Origin: an uncultured delta proteobacterium
GTDB lineage: Bacteria; Desulfobacterota; Desulfobacteria; Desulfobacterales; B30-G6
Length of the DNA stretch: 64,000 nucleotides
Reading direction: 5' to 3'
Assembly: GCA_963842925.1 (NCBI GenBank)
Contig: CAWJIL010000009.1
Coordinates: forward strand, 6,244-70,243
The notes under the pieces are model-generated. The model was given only the letters and a program-made list of their open reading frames with translations. It searched no databases and had not been told where the DNA came from. Of this stretch, positions 13,475 to 30,107 are shown one piece after another. The position numbers and the translations under genes were made by a program. Every line of letters begins with the position of its first letter. Position 1 is the stretch's first letter.

Positions 13475-13485
13475 AAACATATGAG

Positions 13486-15121: not shown

Positions 15122-15199
15122 AGGTTTTTAGACTGTTAGGCTATTAGGCTGTTAGACTGTTAGCGGCTAATATCTAATAGTCTAACAGCCTAAAAACCT
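15122..15199. repeat. word hairpin (ttag / ctaa words)
   Basis: aggtttttagactgttaggctattagg ... cctaatag..cagcctaaaaacct. Related to 19957-20065. Confidence 0.75.
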
Positions 15200-15211: not shown

Positions 15212-15724
15212 TCAAGATCTGGTCTCATATTGTTGAACGATGTTCTGAATTCTTTCTTCAACAAAGGCAATGAGTTCTTTGGTGGTTTCTGTGGAGATGG
15301 TCTCGACACCCTGGGCCAGGCTTTCCACTTTTTCTTCTTCGATTCCGGTGATCTTGTTGATCAGAAATGCATCAACTTCACCGTCATCCATGCATTTTCC
15401 ACAGGCCCCCACGGCACCGACAAAGGTGTCCCCCACAAAAACGGGCACCACAATTTTGACGATGCCGGCATCGCATTCCTCCACAACCGCCTGTCCGCTG
15501 TTACGGGCCATGACAGCCAGGTTCATGTGAGCCACCGCACAAATAAAGCTTTGCCCTTTATCGGTGGCTTTGATCTCGGGACATATCTTGTTCACCCATG
15601 CTTTATAGGGTGTAATCCGGATGCCGTCGGTGTTGAAGACATTGGTATCCAAGCCATATCGTTTGTGGATCTCTTTTTCCAGGTTCATCCATTCTTCCAC
15701 CGACAAAAGGTCTGTCAATTTCAT
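15212..15724 (-). CDS. stand-alone PocR ligand-binding domain protein
   Basis: PocR-type core (FICAVAHMNLAVMARNSGQAVVEECDAGIVKIVVPVFVGDTFVGAVGACG). The Met at 15724 gives an ATGA overlap with the oleD stop; the track start is 15736. Confidence 0.7.
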   Translation of the reverse strand: MKLTDLLSVEEWMNLEKEIHKRYGLDTNVFNTDGIRITPYKAWVNKICPEIKATDKGQSFICAVAHMNLAVMARNSGQAVVEECDAGIVKIVVPVFVGDTFVGAVGACGKCMDDGEVDAFLINKITGIEEEKVESLAQGVETISTETTKELIAFVEERIQNIVQQYETRS

Positions 15725-16749
15725 TTTTCCATCCATTCCTTTAGTTGCTTCAATCCCTCTGTTTGCGACACCTCCGGCACGTAGCCCAGATCCCTTTTTG
15801 CAGCGCTGATATCAAACCAGTGACTCTTGGATAGCTCGTTGGCCAGAAAACGGGTCATTCTGGGTTCAGATCTAATTCCCAGGCTTTTATAAACACTTTC
15901 CAAAACCCAGCCAATGGCATACGCAAGACCTTTGGGAATAGATTTTTTTACCGGTGGCTGACCAGCGGCAGCTAAGAGATGGTTCACCATGTCCCACAGA
16001 TAAACAGGCTCTCCCTGGCTGATAAAGTAGATACGGCCTGAAAGTTGTTGGTTTGCCATCAGTTTTTGGGCTGCCAGGACATGGGCCTGGGCCGCGTTGT
16101 CGATATAGGTTGTGTCGATGCGGTTTTTACCGTCACCCACCCGTCTGAGGGTCTTGGCCTGTTTGACAATCCTTGGCACAAAATGGGTGTCCCCCGGTCC
16201 CCATATCAAGTGGGGCCGCAGTATGATTGCCTGGACCACACCCTCCTGGCATGCCTGGAGCACAAGCCGCTCAGCCTGGGCCTTGGTTTCCTGGTAGGCG
16301 GTCTGATATCCATCGGGGTAGGGGACCGACTCATCCACACCCATCACATCGGCTTCCCCATCATAAACCACACTGGGAGAACTGGTGTAGATCAAATAGG
16401 CAATCCCTTGCTGTTTGCAGGCTTGGATAATGTTGCGGGTACCAACGACATTGGTCTCATGGAAGCCTTGATGGGCTCCCCACATGCCGCCGGTTTTAGC
16501 CGCCACATGAAACACAAGATCCCGATGCTCACACGCTTTTTCCACGGCAGCCGGATCACTGATATCCCCCTGAAGCTGTTCTACACCCAGGGCATCCAGT
16601 GCTGCATACTGTTTCCGACTCAAGGATCTGATGTTCGGCGTGTGCTTCAAGAGGCGCTTGATAAGCGCTTTGCCAAGAAATCCACCGCCACCTGTCACGA
16701 GAACGCGGGAATCTTTCAAGATGAGGTTGTCGGTTAGCTTTGTTGACAT
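15721..16749 (-). CDS. oleD: OleD, NAD(P)H-dependent 3-beta-HSD/SDR-family reductase
   Basis: Rossmann motif VTGGGGFLG. Position in the oleABCD order. The first 10 codons of the track ORF (to 16779) lie in a RepA end-module, so the Met at 16749 is preferred. Confidence 0.8.
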   Translation of the reverse strand: MSTKLTDNLILKDSRVLVTGGGGFLGKALIKRLLKHTPNIRSLSRKQYAALDALGVEQLQGDISDPAAVEKACEHRDLVFHVAAKTGGMWGAHQGFHETNVVGTRNIIQACKQQGIAYLIYTSSPSVVYDGEADVMGVDESVPYPDGYQTAYQETKAQAERLVLQACQEGVVQAIILRPHLIWGPGDTHFVPRIVKQAKTLRRVGDGKNRIDTTYIDNAAQAHVLAAQKLMANQQLSGRIYFISQGEPVYLWDMVNHLLAAAGQPPVKKSIPKGLAYAIGWVLESVYKSLGIRSEPRMTRFLANELSKSHWFDISAAKRDLGYVPEVSQTEGLKQLKEWMEK

Positions 16750-17003
16750 AATTATTCCGTCAGTTAAAACTTGGTCCATTAGGCCAGTTCAGAGATATTT
16801 GGCCATTCCGATGGTGGTCGGTACTTAATTAAATCCGAAGCACGAAATTCGAAATCCTAAACAATACCGAATGATCAAAATAACGAATGATCAAAACAAA
16901 ACCTAAGCAATACAAGTTTAAGCATTCTGCTTAAAACATTTGAGCATTTGATATTTGGATTTGTTTCGTATTTCGATATTCGGATTTAGAATTTACACAC
17001 GGT
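16750..17003 (-). repeat. RepA copy
   Basis: Contains the end module, both cgaaat-word arms and a centre like that of the 9061 copy. Confidence 0.85.
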
Positions 17004-17007
17004 GCCT

Positions 17008-18675
17008 TCACCGTACCCTGGCCTGCGCCCAAATCTTAAGTTTCTCACGGAATATCTTTGAATTGTGCCGAATATCCACCGGAAATGCTTTGTGATACAA
17101 GATGGTGTCAATTTCCTGGGTGAGGACAGACTCTTTGGCGAGTTCCAACAATTCTTCGGTAATCTTCTTTTTATTTTTCTTCTTGGGGGTCTTTTCCAGT
17201 TCAATGCAAATAACCGGTTTTTGTTTTGGGCGTGGCCGGATACCCACCAGGGCGCTTCTGAAAACCAGTGGATGGCGATTGAAGATGGCCTCGCAGGGAA
17301 TGGTAAACAGGGTCTGGGTCTCTGTTATGACGCGGTGACTTTTCCTTCCGCAAAACCAGAGTCGTTGTTCCGTGTCCATCCATCCAAGATCTCCCATACG
17401 ATGCCACAGACTGGTACTCTCTTCAATCTTGGAAAACAAGTCTTCTCTTTTTCTTTCGAAATATTGATGCGTTACCAGGTCACCCCTGACCGTGATCTCA
17501 CCAATTTCACCGTCCGGAACAATCAGATCCTCAGACCACTGGGAGATAGGCTCATCACTAATCTGGATGATACGTACCTTCAGGTCGGGCAAGACCCGAC
17601 CGACACATATGCCATATCCCTGTTCACTCAACTGACGTGTTTTGCCCAAGATCTCATGACTCCCCATGACCGAAACCGGCATGGCTTCGGTGGCACCGTA
17701 CCCGGGGAATATTTCGGTTTCAGGTTCCAGCATCTCACTGAAACGCTCCAGGTTGTCGGGCAATGCCGGCGCACCGGCCGAAATGACGCGCTTTAGTGTG
17801 GGAAGTTTGATATGTCGCGCCTGACCGTATCGTCCCACACGATCAAGAAGTGCCGGTGAGGCAAACATATTGCCTACACCATGATTCAAAATCAACTCGA
17901 TGATGCGTTCAGGATTCACCTGGGCCGGCTTGGTGGGGTCCATGTCCGGTATCACGGCTGTCATGCCAAGAGCGGGATCAAATAGCGCAAATAACGGAAA
18001 GGTCGGCAAATCGATTTCACCCGGCGTAATGTCGAATCTGTTTTTGATTTGCCGCACCTGGGCATCGAAGATGCCGTGGGTATAGACCACACCCTTTGCC
18101 GGACCTGTACTGCCGGTTGTAAAAAGAATCGCTGCTGTTTCGTCCTTCTGGGTTTTTGCAATGGGAAACGGTTTCCAGGGTGTATGACGAACATCTTCGA
18201 GTCTGGGACCTCTCCAAAACCATCGCTTTCCGATGGTTATGGCTGTGCTCAATGATTTAAAATAGCTGGGCGCACATATGCGCAGGGCATGCGCCAGGGG
18301 TAAGCCGATAAAAGCGGTCGCTTTGCTCTCTGAAAGACAGTTGAGCATCCGCTTTATCCCCATTCCCGGATCCACCATCACGGGTATTGCACCGGTTTTA
18401 AAAAGGGCAAAGGTCAGAACAAAGAATTCAAGACTTGGCTTTACCATCAATATGGTCCGGGTACCCCGTTTGATACCATGGCGAATAAGACCATGAGCCA
18501 AACAATCAGATTCCCTCTCCAGCTGTCTGAAGGTGAGGTGCGTGTAGGCAAGTCCCTTGTACCGGTTCTGCCGTAAGGGACAAATCACAGCCCTGGTGTA
18601 GGGCTGTTTACCTGCCATTTTACGAAGCAGGGATGCCACGTTCACTATTTTTTCTTCGGCGTATTCATCGGGCAT
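17008..18675 (-). CDS. oleC: OleC, AMP-dependent synthetase (beta-lactone synthetase family)
   Basis: AMP-binding motif TTGSTGPAKGV. Position between oleB and oleD. Confidence 0.8.
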   Translation of the reverse strand: MPDEYAEEKIVNVASLLRKMAGKQPYTRAVICPLRQNRYKGLAYTHLTFRQLERESDCLAHGLIRHGIKRGTRTILMVKPSLEFFVLTFALFKTGAIPVMVDPGMGIKRMLNCLSESKATAFIGLPLAHALRICAPSYFKSLSTAITIGKRWFWRGPRLEDVRHTPWKPFPIAKTQKDETAAILFTTGSTGPAKGVVYTHGIFDAQVRQIKNRFDITPGEIDLPTFPLFALFDPALGMTAVIPDMDPTKPAQVNPERIIELILNHGVGNMFASPALLDRVGRYGQARHIKLPTLKRVISAGAPALPDNLERFSEMLEPETEIFPGYGATEAMPVSVMGSHEILGKTRQLSEQGYGICVGRVLPDLKVRIIQISDEPISQWSEDLIVPDGEIGEITVRGDLVTHQYFERKREDLFSKIEESTSLWHRMGDLGWMDTEQRLWFCGRKSHRVITETQTLFTIPCEAIFNRHPLVFRSALVGIRPRPKQKPVICIELEKTPKKKNKKKITEELLELAKESVLTQEIDTILYHKAFPVDIRHNSKIFREKLKIWAQARVR

Positions 18676-18676
18676 G

Positions 18677-18711
18677 GGTAAAAAATAGGTTTTAAGTTTT
18701 AGGTTTTAGGT
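18677..18711. repeat. heptamer array (aggtttt)x5
   Basis: Lies directly upstream of the oleC start. On the coding strand it reads aaaaccta repeats. Confidence 0.9.
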
Positions 18712-18738
18712 TTTAGGTTTCAGACAGCAATCGTAGAT

Positions 18739-18920
18739 ACCCGGTTCCAAATGATCCAGCACTGATTCAACTCTCTCATGTTTTGATCATTCGAATTTGG
18801 ATCATTAGGTATTGTTTAGGATTTCGAATTTCGTGCTTCGGATTTGAGTAACCACCGCCATCGGCATAGCTAAATATCTCTAACCTGGCCCAAAGGACCC
18901 GGTTTTAAATGACGGAATAA
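18739..18920 (+). repeat. RepA partial copy (lacks the first arm)
   Basis: gatcattcgaatttggatcattaggtattgtttaggatttcgaatttcgtgcttcggattt ... ctctaacctggcccaaaggacccggtt. Confidence 0.85.
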
Positions 18921-18996
18921 ACAAAGCGCTTTCAACAGCTTATGGCTTATGGCTTACAGCTCAATGTTTTTATATTTAATTTCTGTAAGTTACCCC

Positions 18997-19914
18997 TCAA
19001 TCGCTCAATCTGTCTTCTAACATGAATTTACGGATATGGTCAATAACCGTTTCTGCTGCATCCTCCAGGACATAATGGCCGGCATCCTCAAAGGTGTGCA
19101 CCCGGGCGTCTGGAAATCGATGACGCCATTCATCGAGATAGGCCCTGGTAAAGACAAAATCTTTCATGCCCCAACAGATAAGCATGGGCAGGTCTCGCAG
19201 ACGATGTAAATCGTTCTGGACCGTTTTCACGGTCTCAAAACTCGGATCGCCTGGTTTGAGGGGGATGTCTTCTACAAATTTGAGGGTGGCAATGCGATTC
19301 TGCCAACTATTGTAAGGCGCCAATAGCCCTGATTTCACATCGTCAGGCATGCCTTTGGCCGTTGCCATGAAAAGAGCGCTGCGTGCAAAAGCGTTGAATC
19401 CCAGAACCGCCACCTTGGCAAAGGGCTTGACATGTCGGATCAATTTCAGTCTGAGGGGCAGGCTACGGTTTTGGGGAGGAAAAAACGCCGCCGTATTGAG
19501 CAGGACAATTTTATCTATGCGAGCCAAATGCCGGAGTGCATATGCAATTCCAATCATGCCGCCCCAATCGTGGAGTACAAGTGTTATTTTCTCCTTTAAT
19601 TCCAAACGGCTGATAAAACGCTCCAAATCCTTGATCCGGCGATCAAGGGTATAGTCATATTGTTCCACAGCTGGTTTGTCTGATAAGCCACAGCCTATAT
19701 GGTCCACCGCGATGGCCTGAAAGTCTGGAGAAAGCGCTTGGATAAGTCTCCGGTAGTAAAACGACCAGGTGGGATTGCCATGCACCATGATGACAGGCGA
19801 ACCCGCCCCTTCATCCACATAGTGATATTTGAAGCCATTCACATCCAGAAAATGAGATTCAAATGGGTACAGGTGCCGGAATGGAGTAAGATCGATGGAT
19901 TTGTTTTTTACCAT
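18997..19914 (-). CDS. oleB: OleB, alpha/beta-hydrolase (haloalkane-dehalogenase-like, beta-lactone decarboxylase family)
   Basis: Nucleophile motif LVLHDWGG and C-terminal His (AGHYVLED). Position between oleA and oleC. Confidence 0.8.
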   Translation of the reverse strand: MVKNKSIDLTPFRHLYPFESHFLDVNGFKYHYVDEGAGSPVIMVHGNPTWSFYYRRLIQALSPDFQAIAVDHIGCGLSDKPAVEQYDYTLDRRIKDLERFISRLELKEKITLVLHDWGGMIGIAYALRHLARIDKIVLLNTAAFFPPQNRSLPLRLKLIRHVKPFAKVAVLGFNAFARSALFMATAKGMPDDVKSGLLAPYNSWQNRIATLKFVEDIPLKPGDPSFETVKTVQNDLHRLRDLPMLICWGMKDFVFTRAYLDEWRHRFPDARVHTFEDAGHYVLEDAAETVIDHIRKFMLEDRLSD

Positions 19915-19956
19915 GATGGCTTTCTAATTCATTCTTGCATGGATGTTAACACAAGA

Positions 19957-20065
19957 GGCTATTAGGCTGTTAGACTGTTAGGCGGCTAATAGTCTAATAG
20001 TCTAATAGCCTAAAAGCCTTCTGTATACTGTTAGGCGCCTAATAGTCTAATAGCCTAAATGCCTT
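19957..20065. repeat. word hairpin (ttag / ctaa words)
   Basis: aggctattaggctgttagactgttaggcggctaatagtctaatagtctaatagcct... Confidence 0.75.
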
Positions 20066-20072
20066 CAGTTTT

Positions 20073-21113
20073 CTACCACTCAATCCCCAGCATCAAACAA
20101 TTCAATCCGCTACCAATACCCAGCATTCCCACCAGGTCATCTGTTTTGAAAAAATCACGCTCCACAGCGATGGCGGCGGTAATGGGCAGGGATACGGTGC
20201 CAATATTGCCCAGGTATTGAAAGGTGGTAAAATCACGCTGTCTGGGAATGCCGATGGACTTCAGGATCGTGTCCTGGTGGGTTGAGCCCACCTGGTGGCA
20301 GACCGTCTTGTCAGGCTGGTCTGCGGTAAGTGAAAGGGTTTTGCGAAATTCCCGGTAGGTCTCTATCCCCAGTGCAACGCCATGTTTCAAGACCCCCACA
20401 GAATCCGTGTTCATGACCTGTTTTCCCACGCTGGATACGCCACTGTCAGGTCCCCAGGTGCAAAGCTTATGATGTTCGGTGGCACATTGATACGCCCCCC
20501 CCAGGAGGCGGTGATTTTGATCAGACAGGGTCGCATCCGTCAGGAGTACGGCCACAGCTCCCGACCCCCCCGTCAGGGTAGCAACTGTCTGCTTGAATAC
20601 GTCCATGCTGCCGGCCGTCAGCATTCTTTGGATGGTACTGTCGACGATCTCACGTGCGGATTCACAGGACACCACAAGCCCGGCTGATATCTGCCCGAGT
20701 TCGATGGCATTCGCCACCTGAACCAGGCCATTCAGAATTCCAAGACAGGCATTGGAAACATCGTAAACCAGCGTGTCTGGCCCGAGACCCAGTCCATTGG
20801 ATACGGCACAGGCTGTGGCCGGTTCCAGGTTGTCGCGGCACACACCGCCGTACACCAGCATCTGGATTTTCTGAGGATCGATGCCTGCACCTGCAATGGA
20901 TTTTTCCCCCGCAAGAATCGCACCCTCTGCCATCTGGAATCCGGGATCCCAGAATCTTCTTTCACGAATCCCCGTGAGAGATTCCAGCTGCCCCTTTTGA
21001 AAATGAAGCGCATCGTACAACGGCGCCAGGCGTTTTTCCAGATCATCCGAACTCACCACATTGGGGGGTAGTTCGTATCCAAAGGAAGCGATGTTGACTT
21101 TTGAGTATTTCAT
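20073..21113 (-). CDS. oleA: OleA, FabH-like thiolase (head-to-head Claisen condensing enzyme)
   Basis: Active-site Cys context DVSNACLG. N-terminus LPPNVVSSDDLEKRLAPLYDAL...LESLTGIRERRFW is typical of OleA rather than FabH. Confidence 0.8.
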   Translation of the reverse strand: MKYSKVNIASFGYELPPNVVSSDDLEKRLAPLYDALHFQKGQLESLTGIRERRFWDPGFQMAEGAILAGEKSIAGAGIDPQKIQMLVYGGVCRDNLEPATACAVSNGLGLGPDTLVYDVSNACLGILNGLVQVANAIELGQISAGLVVSCESAREIVDSTIQRMLTAGSMDVFKQTVATLTGGSGAVAVLLTDATLSDQNHRLLGGAYQCATEHHKLCTWGPDSGVSSVGKQVMNTDSVGVLKHGVALGIETYREFRKTLSLTADQPDKTVCHQVGSTHQDTILKSIGIPRQRDFTTFQYLGNIGTVSLPITAAIAVERDFFKTDDLVGMLGIGSGLNCLMLGIEW

Positions 21114-21481
21114 TTTTTTTGGTGTTTGGTGTTTTGTGTTTGGTAGCTACCAGCAGCCTGCCAGTAGCTAATGGCTGTTTTCCTCTTCCCCTTTTATCTT
21201 CTTTCCTTCATTCCTTCTGTCTTTCTGTTCGTTGAGAACGTTAGGATCGTTGAGATCGTTAAGAACGTTTTTTGTTCAATCCGTCATCCCGGCCAAGTTC
21301 CACGAAGTGGAAGGCGAGCCGGGATCCAGTCTCAGCAAATAGCAAAGGGCAGCATCCTAGCTTTACTGTTGTTAAGTGTTAGGTTTTAGGTGTTAAGTAG
21401 GCCTTGAGCTGATTGCTAATAGCAGCATCCCAGCCTCCCAGCATCCTAGCTTCCTAGCATTTTCAATCTCTTCCATCGGTA
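21114..21481. repeat. 368-nt low-complexity/hairpin spacer between the megasynthase and oleA
   Basis: ggtgttt words, cgttgaga/cgttaaga words, hairpin atcccggc..gccgggat, gttagg words, agcatcc/agcctcc words. Confidence 0.7.
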
Positions 21482-24400
21482 TCACCGCTTGGTTACCGGG
21501 ATTAACCCGATGGAAAATTGTTCCATATGATAAATGGGCAGACCGTCTACTGTCAACAGGCTATCAGCGGTGAGCATGGGAAAGGGCTTTTCCTCCACGC
21601 TTGTCACCACAGCGACAAGCTCGATGCGTCTGTTTTCAGGGGTGATTTGTCCGCGATAGGTCCATTGATGATGGATATCCGATTTCAGGGTAAAACAGTG
21701 ATCATCCGCCAGATGCGGCCATCGATCCAGGGCTATGAACTTGAGCGCTTGTATCAGGGACTCCAGACCTAGTGAACCGGGACAGACCGGATCATTCAGA
21801 AAATGGGCTTTAAAAAACCATTCCTCCGGCTGAACGTCTTTTGAGGCCTTGATGAATCCGTGCCCATGGGGTCCTCCTTGCGGGAGATAGGCATCCATGT
21901 GATCGATCATGCGTATGGCCCGTCCCGGCATTACCGCATGTTCATGAACATGACCGGATAAATCGTCCGGTGCCGTTGGGGCATGATCCGGCATTGCCAT
22001 GCTTTTGCAGCCTGTCAAGTCCTCAGGCAGGGTATAGCGAGACATATGGATCTGCTGCAATCCCACCTGCTCGGCCAGCGCTTTGCGGGTAAAAAATCCA
22101 AAATGCGTCTGTCCCTGATAGACCATCTGCTGGGAAAGCAGGATCTGGAACGCATAGTGCTCGATGATCATGTCACCCGCCTCAGACACCTGCGTCAGGC
22201 GTGCACGCGTGGTCAGTGACGATCTTTTTGCAGGCACATCCCTGCTGAGTTGAGCCCTACCACCCAGATTTCTGAACCTGAGATCTTTTTCACTCCGCAG
22301 GGCCGAACCCATGTATGCCGCCAGCCAGCCACACGGCTGGAGTGCGATTTCATTTAAAACACAAAAGGGCATATTCGGCGTACGGTTGGCACGGAAATAC
22401 CAGTCATCCGGATCAATATCCATCTCGGCCTGGATCCAGCCACCGGGTTTCAATACCCAGGGTTCCGGTGCAGCTTCAACCACCCGGTCCATGAACAGAT
22501 AGGGCGGTTTTGGCAACCTGGCAATGAACCGGCGGCTATCAAATTCCCGGTAGGGTTCTCCAAAGGCTATCGAGGGCCTGCCATAGGCAAATTCTTCCAG
22601 CATTTTCCGGTTGAAAATTACGGTATCATTTCCTTTGGGTGCTGGCGGTGCTTTTTTTACAGCAGGAAAGGGCTCTTCTAGGGTGGCTGTTTCTGGAGGG
22701 ATTTTCCAAATATTTTCGATCTCTTCACGTGAGCCCCGGGTCAATTTTATGGAAATACTGTCAAAATAAACAATGTACGCACCATCGGCGGTCATGCGGG
22801 CATCGGCAAGGGCGTATGGCTCCGGGCCATATCCCATTTCCTTGATGTCGATTTCATATACCACGTGCCGGGTCTTGGGTGTTACCGGTCCACGACACTT
22901 CAACACACTTTCAACCCCCACAAGCGGTTCATAGCAGGCGTCTTCTTTGTCACTGATCCATCCGATACGCTGCAGAAATACCCGCAATGTGTGTGCACAG
23001 CATTCGTACATGAGGGTACCCGGCATGACCATGTCATCAACAAAATGACAGGTCAGGTACCAATCGTCCGGGTGAACATCTGCTTCAGCACGTATCAACC
23101 CCTTACCAAAGGTGCCCCCATAGGGATCGAATGTGAGAACACGATCGATGAGGTGCATGCGCCCGTCCGGCAGCCACAGGGAAGAAGATAGGGTTTTGCC
23201 TTGAAACGCAGCACCAAATGCCTCCTCCAGACGCCCGGATCGCAAGGCATCCAGGTCCGTCTCGGAAAACGATTCAGCGGTCACCGGGGCGGGATGCCGC
23301 CAATCAGTACCGGACGCTACTTCCTTAGGCGTGTCATCATGCCCTTCTGAAACAATACCCCCGGAGTTTCGCACCTCCTCTTCGGTAAAGAAACCCGCAC
23401 AGCCATCTTTCATTTGAATGAGCAGGTTATCATCGATAAACCCTTTGAATTTAAAAAAGAAAAGATGGGTATCCCCCTGACGGATAAACTTTTCGATCTC
23501 GATATCATATCGAATGGTCTCGCCTGGCCGTGGCAAGCCCCTGAAGAAGGTCACACAGGCATCCAGGAGACGATAAGTTCTGCGACCCTTGACCTCATGA
23601 TCGATCCCCAGGTAGGAACTGAGAAACAGATCCGCCTGACCAGCCTCCACCGATATGCAGGCCGGCGCACGGTTACCGTCCAGATACCAGGCCCCTGGAA
23701 GCACGTCGTGTTCGGTAACGATCCGGCCACTGCCCAGGGAACATTTTTCACCCACGAGGGAAACAACCCGATCCACCAGCATGAGGGGTTCGTCCGGCAG
23801 TCTCACCCGGGCATTATAGGTATCAACCACCTGGAATTCAGGACCGAATACCTCGGCAACGCAGCCCGTGGCAAAGGTAAGACAGTCTTTTCTGGAATAA
23901 AGCGGGGCAGGCTCTGTTGAAGCGGGGTGTGTACCAGGTCCTGTTGCAACCGTTCCTGTCTCATGGGCTTGCTGCATTTGTGCGCTCAGGAGTTGGGCCT
24001 GCAGTGCCATGGCCTCCTGGTAGCCCTTTGTTATCCGGCTGGAAATTTCCAAATATGATTGGTGTGCTTCGGAGCTTGTCCGGGCATTTTCCTGAACAGA
24101 CTGCATGAGCTCCCGTGCTATTTGGTGGGGAAGGCTCTCAGACGGCATCCCTGAAATAGCATCGATCGCCGTCACGGGATCAATGGCTTGTTCGATTTTC
24201 GATTCTTCCTGAAAAGACATGTCCGAATCTGTATTGCCCGGCAGTAAAGGTGGCGATCCGGGTAAGGGGAGACGGCTAGGGATGCGTATGGGAATTTGAT
24301 TCGATTCCTTTTCTTTTGACAAGGCTCGCGATTTATTCAGTGTTTCATCATAGACAGCATTCATTTCAGGTGGGTAGGATATTCTTCCATATAATTTATC

Positions 24401-27400
24401 GAGTTGGACATCGAGCATCTCGGCCCTGAGGGCTCCCAACATCTTCAAGATTGACAGATATTCGTCATCACCGTTTCGACTGACGGCAACGGCCAGATGG
24501 GGACGATCTTCAAGCGTCTGCTGTATCATTCGCGTGCAGGAGGCCCGGGGTCCCATTTCGATAAAAACACGCATACCATCCTCATAGGCCTGTTGAATGG
24601 TGCGGGTAAAATCAAAGCCATGCAGGGCCTGTTCCGTTATGGATGCTGCTGTCTTTTCACTGGTGAGATCATAGGCATGGCCCCATGCACAACTGTAGAA
24701 ACGCATATTCCCGGGTGGGTTGATGGGGTGCAGGTGGAGTTGCCGATAGTCATCCTCCACAGGTCTGACCGCATCGCAGTGGACCGTCACCACCCCGTCC
24801 AGGAAAACAGCGTTACACCCCAGTGTTTTGACAAGCGTTTGTATGGATTCCTTTTCACCGCCTATAACGGATTCCCTGGGCGAATTAATGATCAAAAGAC
24901 GTGTCATGGGGAATTGCTTTAACACCCTCTTGACCTGGTTTGCCGTTCGATCAACCGCCACCACCTGCCATTCAAATTTCTCTTGGGCTTCAATCTTCCA
25001 TGCACGCCTGAGAGAAAGGCACGGTCCGGTCAAGGCTGTCTTGAACAAGGGTGATTCAAGCATCTGTTTCAACAGGTGGTCTTGACCCTTCCAGGCACCC
25101 ATGGCAACCAATCCGGCGGTCTCCCCAAGGCTGTACCCGATGACCGCCTCAGGCGAGGCCACAAACTCCTGCATCAGTCTGGCTGTGACACACCCGTGCA
25201 TGACCTGCCCGAAAATCGCCGACAAGGGGTCGGCATGAATCTGATGCAAGGTCTGTGTTTCCCATTGGTTTTCCCAGGACATTCGATAGGGTATAAATCG
25301 TTCGGGAATCATTTGCTTTTTCAACTGTCGGGTTTCTGCATCCATCTGGCCTAAAATCAGCGGCCATTGGGTTCCCATGCCCCGTCCCATGCCAAGATAG
25401 TGATTTCCCGAACCAGGAAAAACAAAGGCCGTGCCGGCCGATGCCCCCAGGGGTTTGGGTCTGTAAAAAATATTTGCATGTCCCGGGGCGGTGTCCCGGT
25501 TCTCTGACGCGACGAGCTGTTTGGCTTTGCGAATCTCGTTTTTTGCCTGGTGGATATCTTTGATCACCAGACTGAGCGCTCTTTTTTTTCCTGCTTGAGA
25601 TGCTGTTTTTTCGTACCAGACCCGCGCCACCAGTTCCATGGGCCATCCCCTGGAAATCCCTTTTTGGATCTGATCTAAAAGCCTTCCCAGACCTTCTATG
25701 ATCTCCTGATCATGATCACCTTCCACGACAAAAAGACCGCTGCTCTGATATCCCAGGGGACGAAGCCTGTCTGATGCGACCGCCGGGTCTGAGTTTCTCC
25801 CTACTTTTTCGTATTCCTCCAAAAAAACATGGGTACAGTTGCCATCGGATGTCATGCCGCCCACACAAGCCTTGCGTGACGTGGTCTCCCGGTTTCGAAA
25901 CCAGTATTGCGCTTTGATGGGAACGTGAAAACGTTTTGCCCATGCAATTTCCCCAGGCCGTTGATAATCCGGCATGGGCGGTATGAGCTTATGGTAGAGA
26001 CACAGGCTTGTTTTCACGATGGAAGACAGGCCGGATGCGGCGCCCATGTGTCCCACAATTGGTTTGGTGCTGCCCAGGGCACAATGCAGCCCCGTATCAA
26101 TGGAAATGGCATTCAACACCTTGGATTCTGTGGCATCTTCAGTATGAATACCACTTCCGTGCGCCTCAAAAAGGCTGATGTCCGACAAGCCAATGTCAGC
26201 CTCCTGGGTGGCACGCTCTAGGGATACCTGATACGCTTCCTGCGATACACGCCCACTTTCCATTGCCATTCCAGTGGCAGATCCAAATCCCTTGACAATG
26301 GCATAGATACGATCTTTTGCAACCAGGGCATCTTCCAGACGCTTGAGTACCAGGGCTGTACCGCCTTCTCCGGGAAGGGTCCCCCGAGCCGATCTATCAA
26401 AGGGCAGGACAGATGCTGTACTGGAATAAGGCCTGATCTGATGGTGCGTGGCCAGATATCTGAGATCCCCGGTAAAATCCACAGCACCCACAAGCATCGT
26501 GTCGGACGCATTGTCCTGCAAGGCCCTCACGCCTATTTCCAGGGCCTTGATACCGGAAGCTTCTTCACACGAAACAACGAAACTGGGGCCGCCCAACAGA
26601 AATTCCTTGGCGATCCGGCTTGCAATAACACTGGGTAAAGCTCCCAGTGTCCGGTTGGAAGTCAAGGGTCGGCTGACAGATGCTTTTAAAGAGCGAATCC
26701 ATTCGGTGATATGGGGATCCTGAAGATTGAGCCCATATTTTTTTTCCCATCCACGGATGCTTCGATTAACAATCCATCTCAAATGAAAATTGGTGGCTTC
26801 AAAATCAAAATCAGCACCCACCATCACGCCCATCCTCGGGCGTTTTTCCCTGAGGGGCACACCGGCACTGATAAGGGCGCTTCTACAGAGCTTCATCATG
26901 AGGAGGTGCTGGGGTAGAATATCGGGTATTTCATTGGGGGGAATACGAAACAGACCCATATCCAAAGGGATCTCTTCCATGAATGCGCCGTGTTCCGGAA
27001 CCAACTGACTGAAATAACTATCGGCTCCGGTTTGTATGCCCCGAAGATGCGAATGGTGCTCAATGATGGATTGCCCGTTGAAAACAGCCTCCTGAAAAGC
27101 CCTCAGGGTTGACAGCTTCCCCATGGCAGCACTCATGCCGATGATTGCCACCAGCGGTTTTTCCCTTGTGGAAATTCTGGAACAGTCATTTTCATCGCCA
27201 TTCTTCAGGACGGCTTGCGTTTGCAGATTTATAGCACCCTTTTCATGCCCCTTGACTTGGGTCCATTCTTCCACAAGCATGTGGGCATTGATGCCACCGA
27301 ATCCAAATGCGCTCACAGCGGCTCGACGGGGGGTGTCTGCATCCCGCAGGGTCCAGTCGCTCACTTCCGTCTGGACCCTGAAAGGGCTACCGATCAAAGG

Positions 27401-28618
27401 GCTGTTTTCGGTTGGTTCTGTATAGTTGTTTGATGGCGGTATGTTCTTATGCTTTAATGCAAGTAATACTTTAAGTGTTCCGGCTGCCCCGGCACCTGTT
27501 AAAAGATGTCCGATGGTGGATTTGACCGAGCCGATGGGGCAGACGCCGGCATCCATTTTGATGCCCTGCCACAGGGTTGTGAGACTGCTCAGTTCGGTAT
27601 GATCCCCAAGGGGTGTGCCCGCCCCGTGACATTCAATCAGGTCCACCTGATCCGGTGTCCACCCGGTGGTGTCATAGGCCATGCGCATGGCTCTTACCTG
27701 GCCTTCACGCCTGGGTGCCAGGAGGCTGCCTCCCATATCGTTTGCAAGTCCGATGCCTTTGATGACCGCCAGAATATGGTCATGGTCTTTTTCAGCATCT
27801 TCCACACGTTTCAGCACAAACATGCCGACACCTTCCCCCACAACCAGACCGTCCGCACCTTTGTCAAAAGGCGCGCAGCGACCCGATGGCGACAAGGCAC
27901 GCAGCTGTGAAAATCCAACCTGTGTATAGAGGCAGTCAGGCCGTGACACCCCACCCACCAACATGGCATCCGCCCTGTGGTGTGACAAGGCATCACAGGC
28001 AAGCTTGAATGCTACCAACGATGATGCACAGGCTGCATCCAGTGTATAGCTACCGTTTCCAAGACCAAGTCCTTTGGCTAACAGAGCGGCCGGAAAACCG
28101 GTCATTCTGCCGGCCAGACATTGATTCCTGGTCAGGACCGCTCCCATCTCCCCGGTCATGGGGTGGAATAATTGCTTTTCGAGATAGCTCCCCAGGATTT
28201 TCTCCGCGATCAATGAGGACGCGTCCGTTGGGAGGGCAATAGCGGCAAGAATCACACCGGTTCGTTTTTTGTCGATGGATTCATGTCTGGCAGCCAAAAA
28301 TGCTTCTCTGCCAGCGTGCAGCACGATTCGGTGAAGGGGGTCAAGATCCTGAAGCATGTCTTTGTCAAGATCGAGATCATCAAAACAATAGTCCAAATCC
28401 TGGTTCAAGAGACAGGCCACCCTGGATATTGCCTTGTCAGGCTGCAGTCTTTCTGTGGTCATCATCGCCGGGTCCACCCGCCAGCGATCTTTTCCAAGCG
28501 CCTGAAAGGCATCTTTTTTGAGAACCAGATTTTCCCAGAAAGCATCCAGGCTTTTGGCACCCGGCAAGAGTCCGGCCATACTGACAATGGCGATATCGTA
28601 GGGTCTGGGCGTTTGCAT
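21482..28618 (-). CDS. PUFA/polyketide-synthase-like megasynthase, KS-CLF-AT-(FabA-type DH)x2 (PfaB/PfaC-like)
   Basis: KS Cys DAACASS (nt ~28016-28042) with HGAGT and GHLLTGAG. CLF with Cys replaced (FVVSCEEASG, ~26553-26581). AT GYSLGE (~25120-25145). FabA-type motifs CHFVDDMVMPG (~23016-23058) and AHFLNDPVCPG (~21770-21822). No DSL-type carrier motif seen. Confidence 0.85.
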   Translation of the reverse strand: MQTPRPYDIAIVSMAGLLPGAKSLDAFWENLVLKKDAFQALGKDRWRVDPAMMTTERLQPDKAISRVACLLNQDLDYCFDDLDLDKDMLQDLDPLHRIVLHAGREAFLAARHESIDKKRTGVILAAIALPTDASSLIAEKILGSYLEKQLFHPMTGEMGAVLTRNQCLAGRMTGFPAALLAKGLGLGNGSYTLDAACASSLVAFKLACDALSHHRADAMLVGGVSRPDCLYTQVGFSQLRALSPSGRCAPFDKGADGLVVGEGVGMFVLKRVEDAEKDHDHILAVIKGIGLANDMGGSLLAPRREGQVRAMRMAYDTTGWTPDQVDLIECHGAGTPLGDHTELSSLTTLWQGIKMDAGVCPIGSVKSTIGHLLTGAGAAGTLKVLLALKHKNIPPSNNYTEPTENSPLIGSPFRVQTEVSDWTLRDADTPRRAAVSAFGFGGINAHMLVEEWTQVKGHEKGAINLQTQAVLKNGDENDCSRISTREKPLVAIIGMSAAMGKLSTLRAFQEAVFNGQSIIEHHSHLRGIQTGADSYFSQLVPEHGAFMEEIPLDMGLFRIPPNEIPDILPQHLLMMKLCRSALISAGVPLREKRPRMGVMVGADFDFEATNFHLRWIVNRSIRGWEKKYGLNLQDPHITEWIRSLKASVSRPLTSNRTLGALPSVIASRIAKEFLLGGPSFVVSCEEASGIKALEIGVRALQDNASDTMLVGAVDFTGDLRYLATHHQIRPYSSTASVLPFDRSARGTLPGEGGTALVLKRLEDALVAKDRIYAIVKGFGSATGMAMESGRVSQEAYQVSLERATQEADIGLSDISLFEAHGSGIHTEDATESKVLNAISIDTGLHCALGSTKPIVGHMGAASGLSSIVKTSLCLYHKLIPPMPDYQRPGEIAWAKRFHVPIKAQYWFRNRETTSRKACVGGMTSDGNCTHVFLEEYEKVGRNSDPAVASDRLRPLGYQSSGLFVVEGDHDQEIIEGLGRLLDQIQKGISRGWPMELVARVWYEKTASQAGKKRALSLVIKDIHQAKNEIRKAKQLVASENRDTAPGHANIFYRPKPLGASAGTAFVFPGSGNHYLGMGRGMGTQWPLILGQMDAETRQLKKQMIPERFIPYRMSWENQWETQTLHQIHADPLSAIFGQVMHGCVTARLMQEFVASPEAVIGYSLGETAGLVAMGAWKGQDHLLKQMLESPLFKTALTGPCLSLRRAWKIEAQEKFEWQVVAVDRTANQVKRVLKQFPMTRLLIINSPRESVIGGEKESIQTLVKTLGCNAVFLDGVVTVHCDAVRPVEDDYRQLHLHPINPPGNMRFYSCAWGHAYDLTSEKTAASITEQALHGFDFTRTIQQAYEDGMRVFIEMGPRASCTRMIQQTLEDRPHLAVAVSRNGDDEYLSILKMLGALRAEMLDVQLDKLYGRISYPPEMNAVYDETLNKSRALSKEKESNQIPIRIPSRLPLPGSPPLLPGNTDSDMSFQEESKIEQAIDPVTAIDAISGMPSESLPHQIARELMQSVQENARTSSEAHQSYLEISSRITKGYQEAMALQAQLLSAQMQQAHETGTVATGPGTHPASTEPAPLYSRKDCLTFATGCVAEVFGPEFQVVDTYNARVRLPDEPLMLVDRVVSLVGEKCSLGSGRIVTEHDVLPGAWYLDGNRAPACISVEAGQADLFLSSYLGIDHEVKGRRTYRLLDACVTFFRGLPRPGETIRYDIEIEKFIRQGDTHLFFFKFKGFIDDNLLIQMKDGCAGFFTEEEVRNSGGIVSEGHDDTPKEVASGTDWRHPAPVTAESFSETDLDALRSGRLEEAFGAAFQGKTLSSSLWLPDGRMHLIDRVLTFDPYGGTFGKGLIRAEADVHPDDWYLTCHFVDDMVMPGTLMYECCAHTLRVFLQRIGWISDKEDACYEPLVGVESVLKCRGPVTPKTRHVVYEIDIKEMGYGPEPYALADARMTADGAYIVYFDSISIKLTRGSREEIENIWKIPPETATLEEPFPAVKKAPPAPKGNDTVIFNRKMLEEFAYGRPSIAFGEPYREFDSRRFIARLPKPPYLFMDRVVEAAPEPWVLKPGGWIQAEMDIDPDDWYFRANRTPNMPFCVLNEIALQPCGWLAAYMGSALRSEKDLRFRNLGGRAQLSRDVPAKRSSLTTRARLTQVSEAGDMIIEHYAFQILLSQQMVYQGQTHFGFFTRKALAEQVGLQQIHMSRYTLPEDLTGCKSMAMPDHAPTAPDDLSGHVHEHAVMPGRAIRMIDHMDAYLPQGGPHGHGFIKASKDVQPEEWFFKAHFLNDPVCPGSLGLESLIQALKFIALDRWPHLADDHCFTLKSDIHHQWTYRGQITPENRRIELVAVVTSVEEKPFPMLTADSLLTVDGLPIYHMEQFSIGLIPVTKR

Positions 28619-28803
28619 ATAGTTTATATTTTATCCACCAATGCCTCTTGGAACATCTTGAGGCGACAAGGTCGCATTTTAGGTTCTTCTCCCAATTAGT
28701 TGGGAGAAAGGGTTCAACTTTTTTGGAGATGATCCATATTTTATAAAATCGTATCACGATGTTATTGGGCTACATACCTGAGTCATGTTCTTATTTCAAC
28801 TGC

Positions 28804-28846
28804 GAATAAATTCGTTTCACGAATTTATATGACGCGGCTTGGCCGC
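28804..28846 (+). repeat. twin-hairpin (TH) copy followed by a T-run, orphan
   Basis: gaataaattcgt-ttca-cgaattt followed by gcggc-ttg-gccgc and T9. Confidence 0.7.
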
Positions 28847-28865
28847 TTTTTTTTTATTTCTTCAT

Positions 28866-28975
28866 TGAAAAACCGGTCCTTTGAACCAGGTCAGAGATAT
28901 TTGGCTATGCCAATGGCGGTAGTTACTTAAATCCGAAGCACGAAATTCGAAATTCGAAATTCTAAACAATATACG
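28866..28975 (-). repeat. RepA partial copy
   Basis: End module plus aaatccgaagcacgaaattcgaaattcgaaattctaaacaat. Confidence 0.8.
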
Positions 28976-29016
28976 ATTTATTCCAAACGTTTAACTCTAT
29001 GTAATTTTTAAACATT

Positions 29017-29075
29017 TCACTCGAATCCTCGAATCCTTAATTTTGGATCAACTCTTTTGGAGATGATCCAAAATT
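29017..29075 (-). repeat. RepE copy
   Basis: The reverse complement matches 1971-2038. Confidence 0.7.
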
Positions 29076-29269
29076 TTCATCATTCCAAACCTCCATTGCA
29101 GCGTACAATACTGATTTAGCATACGTACTATCTGGGAATTTTTCCAGGATTGCATTTTGCTTTGCTTATGGGAAACTGCCCATACCACGCCTGCCGGCAA
29201 AAAGGGTGGCTCTGACACTGCAATGCCTTGTCAGAAAACACATTCATATTTGAAAAGGAGGAACACACC

Positions 29270-29551
29270 ATGATGAGAACACAGAAATGGATGACGATTT
29301 TTATGCTTATAGCCCTGGTAATGCTTTCGAGCGGGTCTGTCTTCGCCGAGGAGCAGGGAAAAATCAATATCAACACGGCCACGGTCGAAGAACTGGCACA
29401 ACTGGACCGTGTCGGTCCCAGCTATGCAGATAAAATAGTTGCCTTTCGTCAGGAGAACGGTCCTTTTAAAGTGCCTGAGGACATCATGCTGGTAGCCGGT
29501 ATTGGTCAGAAAACCTTTGAAATCAACAAAGACAGGATCGTGGTCAAATAA
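29270..29551 (+). CDS. comEA: ComEA-like helix-hairpin-helix DNA-binding protein
   Basis: Signal/anchor segment followed by ININTATVEELAQLDRVGPSYADKIVAFRQENGPF...GIGQKTFE. RBS aggagg precedes the ATG at 29270. Confidence 0.65.
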   Translation: MMRTQKWMTIFMLIALVMLSSGSVFAEEQGKININTATVEELAQLDRVGPSYADKIVAFRQENGPFKVPEDIMLVAGIGQKTFEINKDRIVVK

Positions 29552-29699: not shown

Positions 29700-30107
29700 A
29701 TGGACTATGCCTACCAACGACTGGACGTCTGGAAAAAGGCGGTCGATCTTTCCATCAAGGTCATTCAATGTATCGCGGAGCTAGCCGATGAGCTTGAAAG
29801 TCAGCGTCTCACAGAAGAAATTGAAATGAGTGCCGTTAATATCGCCACCAATATTGCCAAAGGCAAGGCCTGTTTGTCGGAGGAGGATTTTATTTACTAC
29901 CTGTTTTTATCCAAAAGATCCCTATACGAAACCATGACACTGTTAGAAATTCTCAAAGCGAAGCAACTGATTACAGACGAGTGCTACACAGAAATAGAAA
30001 CAAAAGGTAAGAACATCACGACCATGCTGATCGAATTTATCCGTACGGTCAAAGATACCAACAGCCCCTATCAGGCAGAAAACTATCAGGCGGCTGTTAA
30101 GACTTAA
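29700..30107 (+). CDS. four-helix-bundle protein (23S rRNA IVS / Avd-like family), copy 1
   Basis: N-terminal YQRLDVWKKAVDL motif. Size and helical pattern typical of the family. Confidence 0.75.
   Translation: MDYAYQRLDVWKKAVDLSIKVIQCIAELADELESQRLTEEIEMSAVNIATNIAKGKACLSEEDFIYYLFLSKRSLYETMTLLEILKAKQLITDECYTEIETKGKNITTMLIEFIRTVKDTNSPYQAENYQAAVKT

Follow-up and report, generated by a model that had tools for sequence, protein, structure and literature searches.

[quoted passage not shown] The genes are genuinely linked, and their linkage, which extends to the PocR gene, is conserved; this argues for a single functional unit that passes the products of PUFA-synthase-type chemistry to the Ole enzymes for head-to-head condensation. 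A sequence-only reading had placed the block at exactly these coordinates and on this strand, and the four motifs it quoted (DVSNACLG, HDWGG, TTGSTGPAKG, and TGGGGFLG) are all in the translations; it counted seven ORFs, where we found six and its own list also names six. Pfam and NCBIfam searches agree with its gene identities for all six proteins, and in comparison with four relatives dN/dS lies at 0.05-0.20 across the six, indicating purifying selection on each. As that reading had stated, no separate opposite-strand gene interrupts the block; the plus-strand ORFs within it (e.g., 16045-16737 and 17065-17796) lie antisense to coding regions and are most likely spurious. The features are as follows.

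15212..15724, minus: stand-alone PocR-domain protein, 170 aa from M5 (PF10114, 60 bits)
15721..16779, minus: OleD-like SDR (2-alkyl-3-oxoalkanoate reductase role), 352 aa; TGGGGFLG Rossmann motif, YQETK
16752..16881, unstranded: repeat element copy 1 (110-130 nt family) in the oleC/oleD spacer; repeat families D4, D8, I2, I3
17008..18675, minus: OleC-like ANL-family enzyme (olefin beta-lactone synthetase role), 555 aa; AMP-binding, TTGSTGPAKG P-loop
18795..18925, unstranded: repeat element copy 2 (same family), inverted, in the oleB/oleC spacer; I1-I3, 82-90% complementary
18997..19914, minus: OleB-like alpha/beta hydrolase (beta-lactone decarboxylase role), 305 aa; Pfam Abhydrolase_1
20073..21113, minus: OleA, head-to-head Claisen-condensing thiolase, 346 aa; FabH-like ACP_syn_III domains
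21482..28618, minus: PfaBC-like megasynthase, 2378 aa, single uninterrupted ORF; KS-CLF-AT-(pseudo-DH/DH)x2
21524..23800, minus: its tandem FabA-type dehydratase/isomerase region, aa 1607-2365; two pseudo-DH + DH pairs
24413..25447, minus: its PfaB-like acyltransferase domain, aa 1058-1402; GYSLG serine motif, PF00698 (49 bits)
25967..27151, minus: its CLF domain, aa 490-884; PF00109, PF02801; 28% identity in the KS/CLF alignment
27233..28597, minus: its KS domain, aa 8-462; PF00109, PF02801, and PF16197
28619..29269, unstranded: divergent intergenic region between pfaBC (minus) and a small HhH-domain gene (plus)
28849..28971, unstranded: repeat element copy 3 (same family) upstream of pfaBC; families D4, D8, I1
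29270-29548, plus: small HhH-domain gene, located by tblastn

The megasynthase, described earlier as PUFA-synthase-like, corresponds to the PfaB/PfaC half of such a synthase (KS-CLF-AT-DH2) and not to the half with ACP, KR, and ER. Domain searches returned a KS, a second KS-like domain (CLF), an AT, and four FabA-like stretches. The KS catalytic residues are intact (Cys197 in DAACASS, His332 in ECHGAGT, and His371 in TIGHLL), and the CLF has Glu in place of the catalytic Cys (SCEEAS); the AT scored 103 bits against TIGR02816 (pfaB_fam), below the curated cutoff of 144. The dehydratase region carries two FabA-type active-site motifs (CHFVDDMVMPG and AHFLNDPVCPG), matching PF07977 in four stretches (273 bits) as well as PRK05174 and TIGR01749 (fabA). 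Since PfaBC is full length with intact active sites and a dN/dS of 0.10-0.20 against four relatives, it is not a relic. Pfam and NCBIfam searches found no ACP, KR, ER, or PPTase domain in the protein, nor was pfaA, pfaD, pfaE, or any ACP, KR, ER, or PPTase gene found in the 64-kb window; in 87 other oleA-centred loci, no PfaA/PfaD similarity and no pfaE was found within about 10 kb of oleA. The block is thus not a self-contained pathway, and the ACP, KR, and ER functions and the PPTase must come from outside the locus. An unlinked pfaD-pfaA(-pfaE) unit would be the simplest source, and we assume a complete PUFA synthase in this genome.

The FabH-like protein is OleA, as the earlier reading proposed, and not an ordinary FabH. 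Its top solved-structure matches were Xanthomonas OleA 3FK5, 3ROW, and 4KTI (E values of 1e-54 to 1e-58), whereas named FabH chains matched far more weakly (4DFE at 3.6e-27, others at 1e-14 or weaker), and it scored 468 bits against PRK09258 (cutoff, 285). The equivalents of Xanthomonas C143, E117, H285, and N315 are Cys123, Glu97, His273, and Asn303, none of which varies across 12 homologues; Glu97 is the OleA-specific Glu. OleB has the HDWGG Asp nucleophile motif and a C-terminal GHY His; its other matches include a haloalkane-dehalogenase-family NCBIfam, and its nearest solved structures are haloalkane dehalogenases. OleC exceeds the PRK09274 cutoff (731 bits against 478), but its best specific matches fall below the equivalog cutoffs (NF045786, 624 bits against 900; NF045785, 616 bits against 850), as do those of OleD (NF042422, 400 bits, and NF042423, 386 bits, both against 580), which also matches the Pfam 3Beta_HSD/epimerase SDR family 3Beta_HSD at 191 bits. 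The claim of a complete oleABCD is borne out by four intact genes under purifying selection, although the scores of OleC and OleD under the NCBI equivalog cutoffs are a point against an olefin product.

Adjacency is conserved in relatives. In a sample of 80 species-level Desulfobacterales genomes, counted over informative loci, PfaBC lies directly upstream of oleA in 55/65 species, making PfaBC-OleA the most conserved pair of the block. The whole of PfaBC is present in 35 of the 40 loci with enough upstream sequence; in the other five it is absent (four) or separated from oleA by inserted sequence (L073). Downstream, oleB follows oleA in 28/38 species and a complete oleBCD does so in 17/38; seven of the 38 have oleA-oleB only, in most cases with a gene for a SurA-like PPIase next, and ten have PfaBC-OleA with none of oleBCD nearby, so that these ten may make an end product other than an olefin. 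The Olavius algarvensis Delta-1 symbiont also carries the five-gene core, set between unrelated flanking genes. Recurrence with different flanks in dozens of species, together with purifying selection on every gene, shows that the arrangement is not due to chance.

Co-transcription of the block is what we infer from this layout, and no terminator-like sites were found in its spacers. The spacers are, however, long (158-368 nt) and repeat-rich, which counts against a single operon, and a strong sigma-70-like match (11/12) at 21556-21527, just before oleA, suggests that oleA-D may have their own promoter. The promoter of the block presumably lies within 28619..29269: there is no minus-strand gene upstream of pfaBC, and the layout of this region is the same in two related loci (L001 and L002). 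The frequency of promoter-like matches in this region does not exceed that in shuffled sequence.

The sixth gene, for the Cys-rich PocR protein, is a conserved part of the block. Its full ORF spans 15212-15736 (174 aa); public gene calls start at M5 (15724), one of them (P0121, 170 aa) with 100% identity, and from there its ATG (15724-15722) overlaps the oleD TGA (15723-15721) as ATGA. It directly follows oleD in 15/21 species loci, and both reverse look-ups from PocR homologues (2/2) led to a gene directly after oleD within the block. Residues C48, C62, H66, C84, and C108 and an EECD motif are invariant among homologues, dN/dS is 0.08-0.15 against four relatives, and the AF2 model (pLDDT 82) has a GAF/PAS-like fold. 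The PF10114 sensory domain, shared with Salmonella PocR and Eubacterium limosum MtaR, has simple hydrocarbon derivatives as its predicted ligands (Anantharaman and Aravind 2005, as cited in PMC13602510). Those two regulators have an AraC-type HTH at the C terminus, and the family also includes histidine kinases, whereas here the domain stands alone in 170 aa and lacks any output domain of the DNA-binding or kinase type; four Cys and one His are invariant, and the start codon overlaps the stop of oleD, a biosynthetic gene. The earlier suggestion of a ligand sensor belonging to the pathway is upheld as to conserved linkage, but "ligand sensor" is only a domain-family label, and since the protein lacks an output domain its regulatory role is putative.

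[quoted passage not shown] 2016), likewise an obligate anaerobe of the former Deltaproteobacteria. Its pfaB and pfaC are fused, with the same KS-CLF-AT-DH2 order (PMC3098273 Table S1), and co-directional oleA, oleB, oleC, and oleD come after the pfa genes, the whole running pfaD-A-B-C-oleA-B-C-D-pfaE in tandem; PUFA-type chains are proposed to enter head-to-head condensation, and C31:9 is made (Yoshida et al. 2016, PMC4882568; PMC3098273 Table S1). The Geobacter cluster has pfaD (ER) and pfaA (KS-MAT-ACP4-5-KR) immediately upstream and pfaE (PPTase) on the downstream side, whereas the Desulfobacterales block has none of the three in the 21 kb to its left or the 35 kb to its right. A PocR-domain gene follows oleD here; in Geobacter one unassigned gene, which may or may not be related to it, lies between oleD and pfaE. 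The C31:9 "PUHC" pathway of Shewanella oneidensis and Photobacterium profundum (pfaABCDE and oleABCD) has the same Ole chemistry (OleA, OleD, OleC, OleB), and the two operons are adjacent in P. profundum SS9 (Allemann et al. 2019, PMC6463001). Experiments in Shewanella and E. coli give evidence that 16:4 chains from the Pfa synthase serve OleA as substrate, and enzyme and synthase appear to interact (PMC6463001). Those bacteria differ in being facultative aerobes that also make EPA or DHA, with separate PfaB and PfaC, a full five-gene pfa operon, and no reported PocR gene; in most of those lineages pfa or ole operons are reportedly accompanied by pfaT, a gene for a hot-dog thioesterase, and no thioesterase family was found among the annotated ORFs here. 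The prototype oleABCD of Xanthomonas campestris has the same four-gene order, and its solved OleA structures are the closest by sequence to OleA here and share its catalytic residues; it differs in condensing ordinary FAS II chains with no pfa neighbour and in its accessory genes, which encode PF13784 and PF03692 proteins (PMC7064751) and not PocR. The equivalog cutoffs missed by OleC and OleD are those of the Xanthomonas and Shewanella proteins.

The missing synthase half admits another source of chains. These genomes might lack PfaA and PfaD altogether, with PfaBC drawing on the housekeeping AcpP and on FabD, FabG, and an enoyl reductase from type II FAS, and OleA condensing unsaturated acyl-ACPs, so that PfaBC-OleA would be a self-standing add-on to FAS II. 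The lack of any PfaA, PfaD, or PfaE signal in the regions searched and the strength of the PfaBC-OleA pairing fit such a hybrid type I/type II system, as does a bona fide fabD (TIGR00128, 309 bits; cutoff, 261) next after oleA in ten species. This adjacency, however, comes with one shared set of flanking genes and so is probably a single evolutionary event; about 10 kb of flank is uninformative on the rest of a 5-Mb genome; and PfaC-type proteins in the cited literature all accompany a PfaA-type multi-ACP subunit (Hxd3, AK-01, and Geobacter; PMC3098273 Table S1). We regard this route as unlikely. Decoupling PfaBC from the Ole enzymes is very unlikely: the latter would use ordinary FAS II chains, as many ole clusters without pfa genes do (e.g., in Xanthomonas and Micrococcus; for gene contexts, PMC7064751), and PfaBC would be a separate secondary-lipid pathway or a relic. 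The five of 40 species without an intact PfaBC directly upstream of oleA would fit, but in 55/65 the pairing has outlasted changes in both flanks and in the downstream ole genes, PfaBC is intact and constrained, and the pfaC-then-oleA junction recurs in Geobacter, a C31:9 maker (PMC4882568).

The end product might also differ, which we consider quite unlikely. PfaBC and OleA would then yield a polyunsaturated 2-alkyl-3-ketoacid or long-chain ketone, and with OleC and OleD a beta-lactone or other neutral lipid, hydrocarbon being just one of the outcomes, where oleB is kept. In E. coli, pfaA-E with OleA as the sole Ole enzyme yielded a 31:8 ketone (PMC6463001), and the species with truncated ole sets and the sub-cutoff scores of OleC and OleD point the same way; yet genomes without local oleBCD may carry these genes elsewhere, and here all four ole genes are intact and constrained and OleB keeps its HDWGG nucleophile motif.

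In the polyolefin pathway that we favour, PfaBC would contribute chain extension (KS-CLF), acyl transfer (AT), and dehydration/cis-isomerisation (the two FabA-type DH) to a PUFA-type synthase, and OleA would join two polyunsaturated acyl thioesters, probably still ACP-bound, head-to-head. OleD would reduce the resulting 2-alkyl-3-ketoacid, OleC would close the beta-lactone, and OleB would decarboxylate it to a cis-olefin; the PocR-domain protein, as a dedicated sixth component, would most likely bind a small hydrophobic ligand or metal and tune the pathway. The earlier proposal of a dedicated pathway from PUFA-type chains to polyolefin is supported in part, by the conserved linkage and the identity of OleA, but only the PfaBC half is present and linkage of pfa and ole is already published, ole genes having been described as "often linked" to pfa-like clusters; the gene order itself has been reported for Geobacter, where the cluster is not genetically characterised. 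A route from PUFA-type chains to polyolefin in an anaerobe is therefore plausible and not new; what is new is the layout, in which the PfaBC half alone accompanies the ole genes, PfaBC-OleA is the most conserved pair, and PocR is a conserved sixth member.

A real, conserved and functional gene block occupies 15212-28618 on the minus strand. In it, a PUFA-synthase-like megasynthase gene directly precedes oleA, and the clustered, co-directional oleABCD genes are followed by a gene for a PocR-domain protein. The sequence-only reading had placed seven ORFs in this co-directional block; the block is present, and the number of ORFs is six:

21482-28618, minus strand: PfaBC-like megasynthase, 2378 aa (ORF)
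20073-21113, minus strand: OleA (FabH-like protein), 346 aa (ORF)
18997-19914, minus strand: OleB (alpha/beta hydrolase), 305 aa (ORF)
17008-18675, minus strand: OleC (AMP-binding enzyme), 555 aa (ORF)
15721-16779, minus strand: OleD (SDR), 352 aa (ORF)
15212-15736, minus strand: PocR-domain protein, 174 aa as an ORF

The four motifs quoted in that reading for the Ole proteins were all recovered in the translations, and its statement that no opposite-strand gene lies between the members held: no independent gene interrupts the six-ORF run, and the plus-strand ORFs listed within the block are antisense to its coding regions. On the 5' side of the megasynthase gene, a 651-nt spacer is followed by a divergent small HhH gene (29270-29548), and on the 3' side of the PocR gene lies a convergent DHH-CBS gene, so that the block is bounded on both sides. 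Two tandem genes of the 23S_rRNA_IVP (four-helix-bundle) family and an ERCC4/HhH nuclease gene (29700-30107, 30319-30708, and 30689-31351) form a trio that is syntenic with the block in the close relatives L001 and L002.

Pfam and NCBIfam scans of the whole megasynthase and of five pieces of it revealed, in order, a ketosynthase (KS) domain with Cys197, His332, and His371; a second KS-like domain in which the catalytic Cys is replaced by Glu, which makes it the chain-length-factor (CLF) type; an acyltransferase (AT) with the GYSLG serine motif; and four FabA-like stretches, arranged as two pairs of a pseudo-dehydratase and a dehydratase (DH), with both FabA-type active-site motifs intact. KS, CLF, and tandem FabA-like DH domains, which characterize a PfaC-type module, are thus all present, and the AT scored 103 bits against the PfaB model TIGR02816, below its cutoff of 144. 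The predicted architecture, KS-CLF-AT-DH2, is the "pfaBC fusion" architecture of Shulse and Allen (PMC3098273). No ACP, KR, ER, or PPTase domain was detected in the protein by the same scans; the megasynthase would therefore be unable alone to make a fatty acyl chain. The AT domain was undetectable in three PfaBC orthologs that retain KS, CLF, and DH (L039 3836-9913, L044 1-5481, and L059 4025-9918), in which the CLF-to-DH distance is about 600 nt, versus about 1900 nt otherwise; some species may thus do without the AT or provide it in trans.

The FabH-like protein is an OleA. Its closest solved structures in a PDB sequence search were those of Xanthomonas OleA (3FK5, 3ROW, 4KTI, and others; E values of 1e-54 to 1e-58), whereas named FabH chains matched far more weakly (3.6e-27 for 4DFE and no better than 1e-14 for all others, including 1e-07 for Escherichia coli FabH), which rules out an ordinary FabH. 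Cys123, the OleA-specific Glu97, His273, and Asn303 of the window protein are the counterparts of Xanthomonas C143, E117, H285, and N315 (4KTI numbering, offset of +20) and are invariant across an alignment of twelve OleA homologs, and the PRK09258 model scored 468 bits (cutoff of 285). The grouping with ordinary FabH that the sequence-only reading had named as grounds against its proposed pathway was accordingly not seen. OleB resembles the haloalkane dehalogenases among alpha/beta hydrolases, and its motifs LHDWGG and GHY hold the Asp nucleophile and the His, respectively; it matched Abhydrolase_1 (105 bits) and dehalogenase-family models (140 to 158 bits, all below their cutoffs), and its assignment rests on fold, motif, and position, since no OleB-specific model was among the Pfam-A or NCBIfam matches. 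OleC scored 624 and 616 bits on the olefin beta-lactone synthetase models NF045786 (cutoff of 900) and NF045785 (cutoff of 850) and passed the broader PRK09274 model (731 bits, cutoff of 478), and OleD, with the motifs TGGGGFLG and YxxxK, scored 400 and 386 bits on the 2-alkyl-3-oxoalkanoate reductase models NF042422 and NF042423 (cutoff of 580). These Ole-model scores are far above those of any other specific family and below the NCBI equivalog cutoffs; best match, motif, and position, rather than a curated threshold, point to Ole-type enzymes in both cases.

The sixth gene encodes a protein of 170 to 174 aa that is wholly taken up by the PF10114 domain (60 bits, cutoff of 23.9, residues 9 to 169). 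A public gene call of 170 aa (P0121) is identical to this ORF and starts at Met5, and the corresponding ATG (15724-15722) overlaps the oleD stop codon (15723-15721) as ATGA, an arrangement consistent with translational coupling. PF10114 is shared with the PocR-family transcription regulators and sensor kinases, but the window protein has no fused output domain (AraC HTH, HisKA/HATPase, or MCP), so a regulatory role is not established; the best 120 homologs are likewise all of 133 to 193 aa, with PF10114 as the only domain. C48, C62, H66, C84, C108, and an EECDAG motif are invariant in an alignment of 25 homologs (61 to 88% identity). An AlphaFold2 model (pLDDT of 82) has a GAF/PAS-like fold; no solved structure with a sequence match was found in the PDB, and the fold search returned GAF/PAS-like matches too weak (TM of 0.5 or less) for a cofactor to be inferred. 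As cited in PMC13602510, Anantharaman and Aravind (2005) predicted simple hydrocarbon derivatives as ligands of the PocR domain. The product of the sixth gene could equally be a regulator or an accessory that binds a ligand, a metal, or an Fe-S cluster, and this conserved Cys-rich protein is a previously unnoticed candidate partner of the Ole pathway. In several related loci, co-directional Hdr-like genes follow the PocR gene (L045, L046 at 15253-18615, L074, L076, and L092 at 10533-14424), encoding a FAD/NAD oxidoreductase, an FlpD(MvhD)-Fer4 protein, and a Fer4 protein, with a CCG-domain protein in L092, where these genes are followed by the convergent DHH-CBS gene that is also present in the window; this insert is absent from the window's lineage.

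A profile of the twelve OleA homologs, run against one-genome-per-species GTDB contigs, gave 419 relatives, and tblastn with the window proteins was used to count synteny in the best 80 of them (68 to 94% OleA identity), nearly all of which are labeled as Desulfobacterales, Thermodesulfobacteriota, or "delta proteobacterium" MAGs. Block-carrying sequences include the chromosome CP070652.1 (bin85, locus L069) and contigs of 0.2 to 0.56 Mb (CAWGLD010000004.1, CAVSVL010000011.1, and Ga0675941_000091). MAGs with the labels Desulfatirhabdium butyrativorans and Desulfonema sp. were also among the hits, which makes cultured members of these taxa candidate carriers.

Gene order around oleA in the best 80 of 419 OleA relatives
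oleA immediately preceded by the PfaBC dehydratase end (upstream sequence of at least 1 kb): 55/65 informative loci
Whole PfaBC upstream of oleA (at least 7.6 kb upstream): 35/40 informative loci
oleB downstream of oleA: 28/38 informative loci
oleBCD complete downstream of oleA: 17/38 informative loci
PocR directly after oleD: 15/21 loci with room

The check on adjacency in relatives proposed by the sequence-only reading was therefore positive, with PfaBC directly upstream of oleA in most informative loci, and both reverse lookups from PocR homologs (64 to 66% identity) led to the same block. Close relatives share the flanks as well; the Delta-1 symbiont of Olavius algarvensis carries the five-gene core, without PocR, in an unrelated neighborhood. 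Pairwise dN/dS values against four relatives were 0.05 to 0.20 for every block gene, PfaBC and PocR included. Together, the synteny counts, the unrelated flanks, and these ratios show that the linkage is selected and not accidental. Its most stable part is the PfaBC-OleA pair.

Variants of the block occur among relatives. Seven of 38 informative species have oleA-oleB with neither oleC nor oleD nearby; in most of these, and in two or three shorter loci, a gene for a SurA-like PPIase comes next (L017, L019, L023, L024, L042, L053, and L063; e.g., L017 2238-3224), and with this gene in place of oleC and oleD, the ole genes are split in some lineages. In four species with ole genes, PfaBC is absent from the 10 kb upstream of oleA. 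In ten species, a bona fide fabD (TIGR00128, 309 bits) directly follows PfaBC-OleA (L018, L028, L030, L036, L038, L052, L057, L058, L060, and L070; e.g., L038 11387-12322), succeeded by dksA, a PHP-domain gene, and rnc, with no oleBCD within 10 kb. The fabD adjacency is either chance synteny of one lineage or a hint of malonyl loading in trans.

Spacers within the block measure 368, 158, 321, and 228 nt in the window genome, versus as little as 5 nt in relatives, and are filled with 7- to 8-nt tandem repeats and three copies of a 110- to 130-nt element. The short repeats, which resemble the short tandemly repeated heptamers of cyanobacteria, lengthen the ole-block spacers relative to those of relatives and occur in many intergenic spacers across the window (e.g., 13489-13536, 13714-13733, 15128-15163, 18686-18720, 19956-20019, 21118-21144, 21229-21269, 21423-21460, 28929-28968, 33955-33992, 35619-35659, 35828-35866, 36612-36650, 38584-38616, 41892-41944, 50704-50737, 61265-61288, and 61325-61354); some arrays form hairpin arms, and several spacers that lie far apart share the units AGAAGAC and ATTCTGA. 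The longer element (16752-16881, 18795-18925 in inverted orientation, and 28849-28971; 77 to 91% identity) looks MITE- or REP-like, and all three copies lie within spacers of the pfaBC-ole block. Elsewhere, an 84-nt unit is present in 2.7 tandem copies (88% matches) at 5747-5973, between helicase-like and radical-SAM genes.

Co-transcription of the block is plausible. No terminator-like hairpin was found in its spacers, and no RNA family was found in the window with Rfam. A sigma-70-like match (21527-21556, minus strand; TTGACA, 18-nt spacer, TATCAT; 11/12) lies within the 3' end of the pfaBC coding sequence, ahead of the repeat-rich spacer that precedes oleA, and could be an internal promoter for oleABCD-pocR. 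Scanned promoter and terminator counts in the window were no higher than in shuffled sequence and so give no positive evidence for operon boundaries.

The central idea, that chains from a PUFA synthase feed Ole condensation in an anaerobe in which the genes are linked, has already been published. ER, KS-MAT-ACPn-KR, and KS-CLF-AT-DH2 are encoded by consecutive genes in Geobacter spp., Pelobacter propionicus, Desulfococcus oleovorans Hxd3, and Gemmata obscuriglobus (PMC3098273, Table S1), and the Type I cluster of Deltaproteobacteria was proposed as the source of olefin precursors (PMC3098273). The statement of the sequence-only reading that the pfa and ole loci lie apart is true for Shewanella but not in general: the two operons are adjacent in Photobacterium profundum SS9, as noted by Allemann et al. 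2019 (PMC6463001), whose experiments also showed that Pfa-synthase chains are diverted by OleA. In the Geobacter Type I order (Yoshida et al., PMC4882568; PMC3098273, Table S1), as in the window, the pfaBC fusion directly precedes oleA and shares its orientation; in Geobacter bemidjiensis and Geobacter sp. M21, a gene with no assignment separates oleD from pfaE. Geobacter has pfaD and pfaA upstream of pfaBC and pfaE downstream, whereas the window has the divergent HhH gene upstream and the convergent DHH-CBS gene downstream. Our literature searches yielded no publication on this split layout, in which pfaBC is the only pfa gene beside ole, on the wide distribution of such a layout in Desulfobacterales, on PfaBC-OleA as the primary pair, or on a PocR-domain sixth gene with ole genes.

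The search for pfaA, pfaD, and pfaE called for by the sequence-only reading came back empty around the block. No such gene, and none for an ACP, KR, ER, or PPTase, is among the annotated ORFs of the 64-kb window, whose other large ORFs include those for an ABC transporter, the two 23S_rRNA_IVP proteins, the ERCC4 nuclease, phosphoglucomutase, exonuclease VII, polyprenyl synthetase, DXP synthase, EF-G, sensor kinases, and an acetyl-CoA-synthetase-like enzyme. With PfaA and PfaD of a Streptomyces globosus plasmid cluster as tblastn queries, neither the ACP or KR region of PfaA nor any PfaD similarity was found in the window or in 87 oleA-centered loci of related genomes. A PfaD profile, for which further sequences were taken from Persicobacter, Nostoc, and Azospirillum plasmids, gave in the best 120 matches from a set of 5.8 billion proteins only Streptomyces/Kitasatospora, cyanobacterial, Chloroflexota, and Azospirillum-like proteins, with no link to Desulfobacterales assemblies. 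In every locus the run opens with PfaBC, and the long flank ORFs of related loci are not PfaA; they encode SbcC, an M16 peptidase, a type I restriction R subunit, and sensor kinases.

The reading of PfaBC as a decaying relic was rejected: 35 of 40 species (best 80 of 419 OleA relatives) have a full-length gene, and the motifs are intact and dN/dS is 0.10 to 0.20. We consider it reasonably probable that the block serves the synthesis of polyunsaturated long-chain hydrocarbons and draws its carrier and reductase functions from outside the locus. It is unlikely, though worth stating, that PfaBC-OleA is instead a PfaA- and PfaD-independent hybrid type I/type II module with PocR as a nonregulatory Ole partner. 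The hybrid would extend the housekeeping type II fatty acid synthase (AcpP, FabD, and FabG) with PUFA-type elongation and the chemistry of cis double bonds, and the polyunsaturated chains would be condensed directly by OleA; the Cys4-His PocR protein would then be a new "fifth Ole protein," accessory to the pathway and binding a metal, an Fe-S cluster, or a lipid. The layout poses the question, open to testing, of whether the KS-CLF-AT-DH2 half is workable with a carrier and reductase encoded elsewhere or even with those of type II fatty acid synthesis.

Shewanella-type bacteria and Geobacter are known sources of long-chain polyunsaturated hydrocarbons such as C31:9, and Desulfobacterales are dominant sulfate reducers in marine sediments and gutless-worm symbionts. 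The compact pfaBC-oleABCD(-pocR) unit is widespread in uncultured members of this order. Our findings do not overturn current understanding but extend the published idea; the wide distribution of the unit suggests that Desulfobacterales are a large and so far unexplored reservoir of polyolefinic lipids, which are possible sediment biomarkers.
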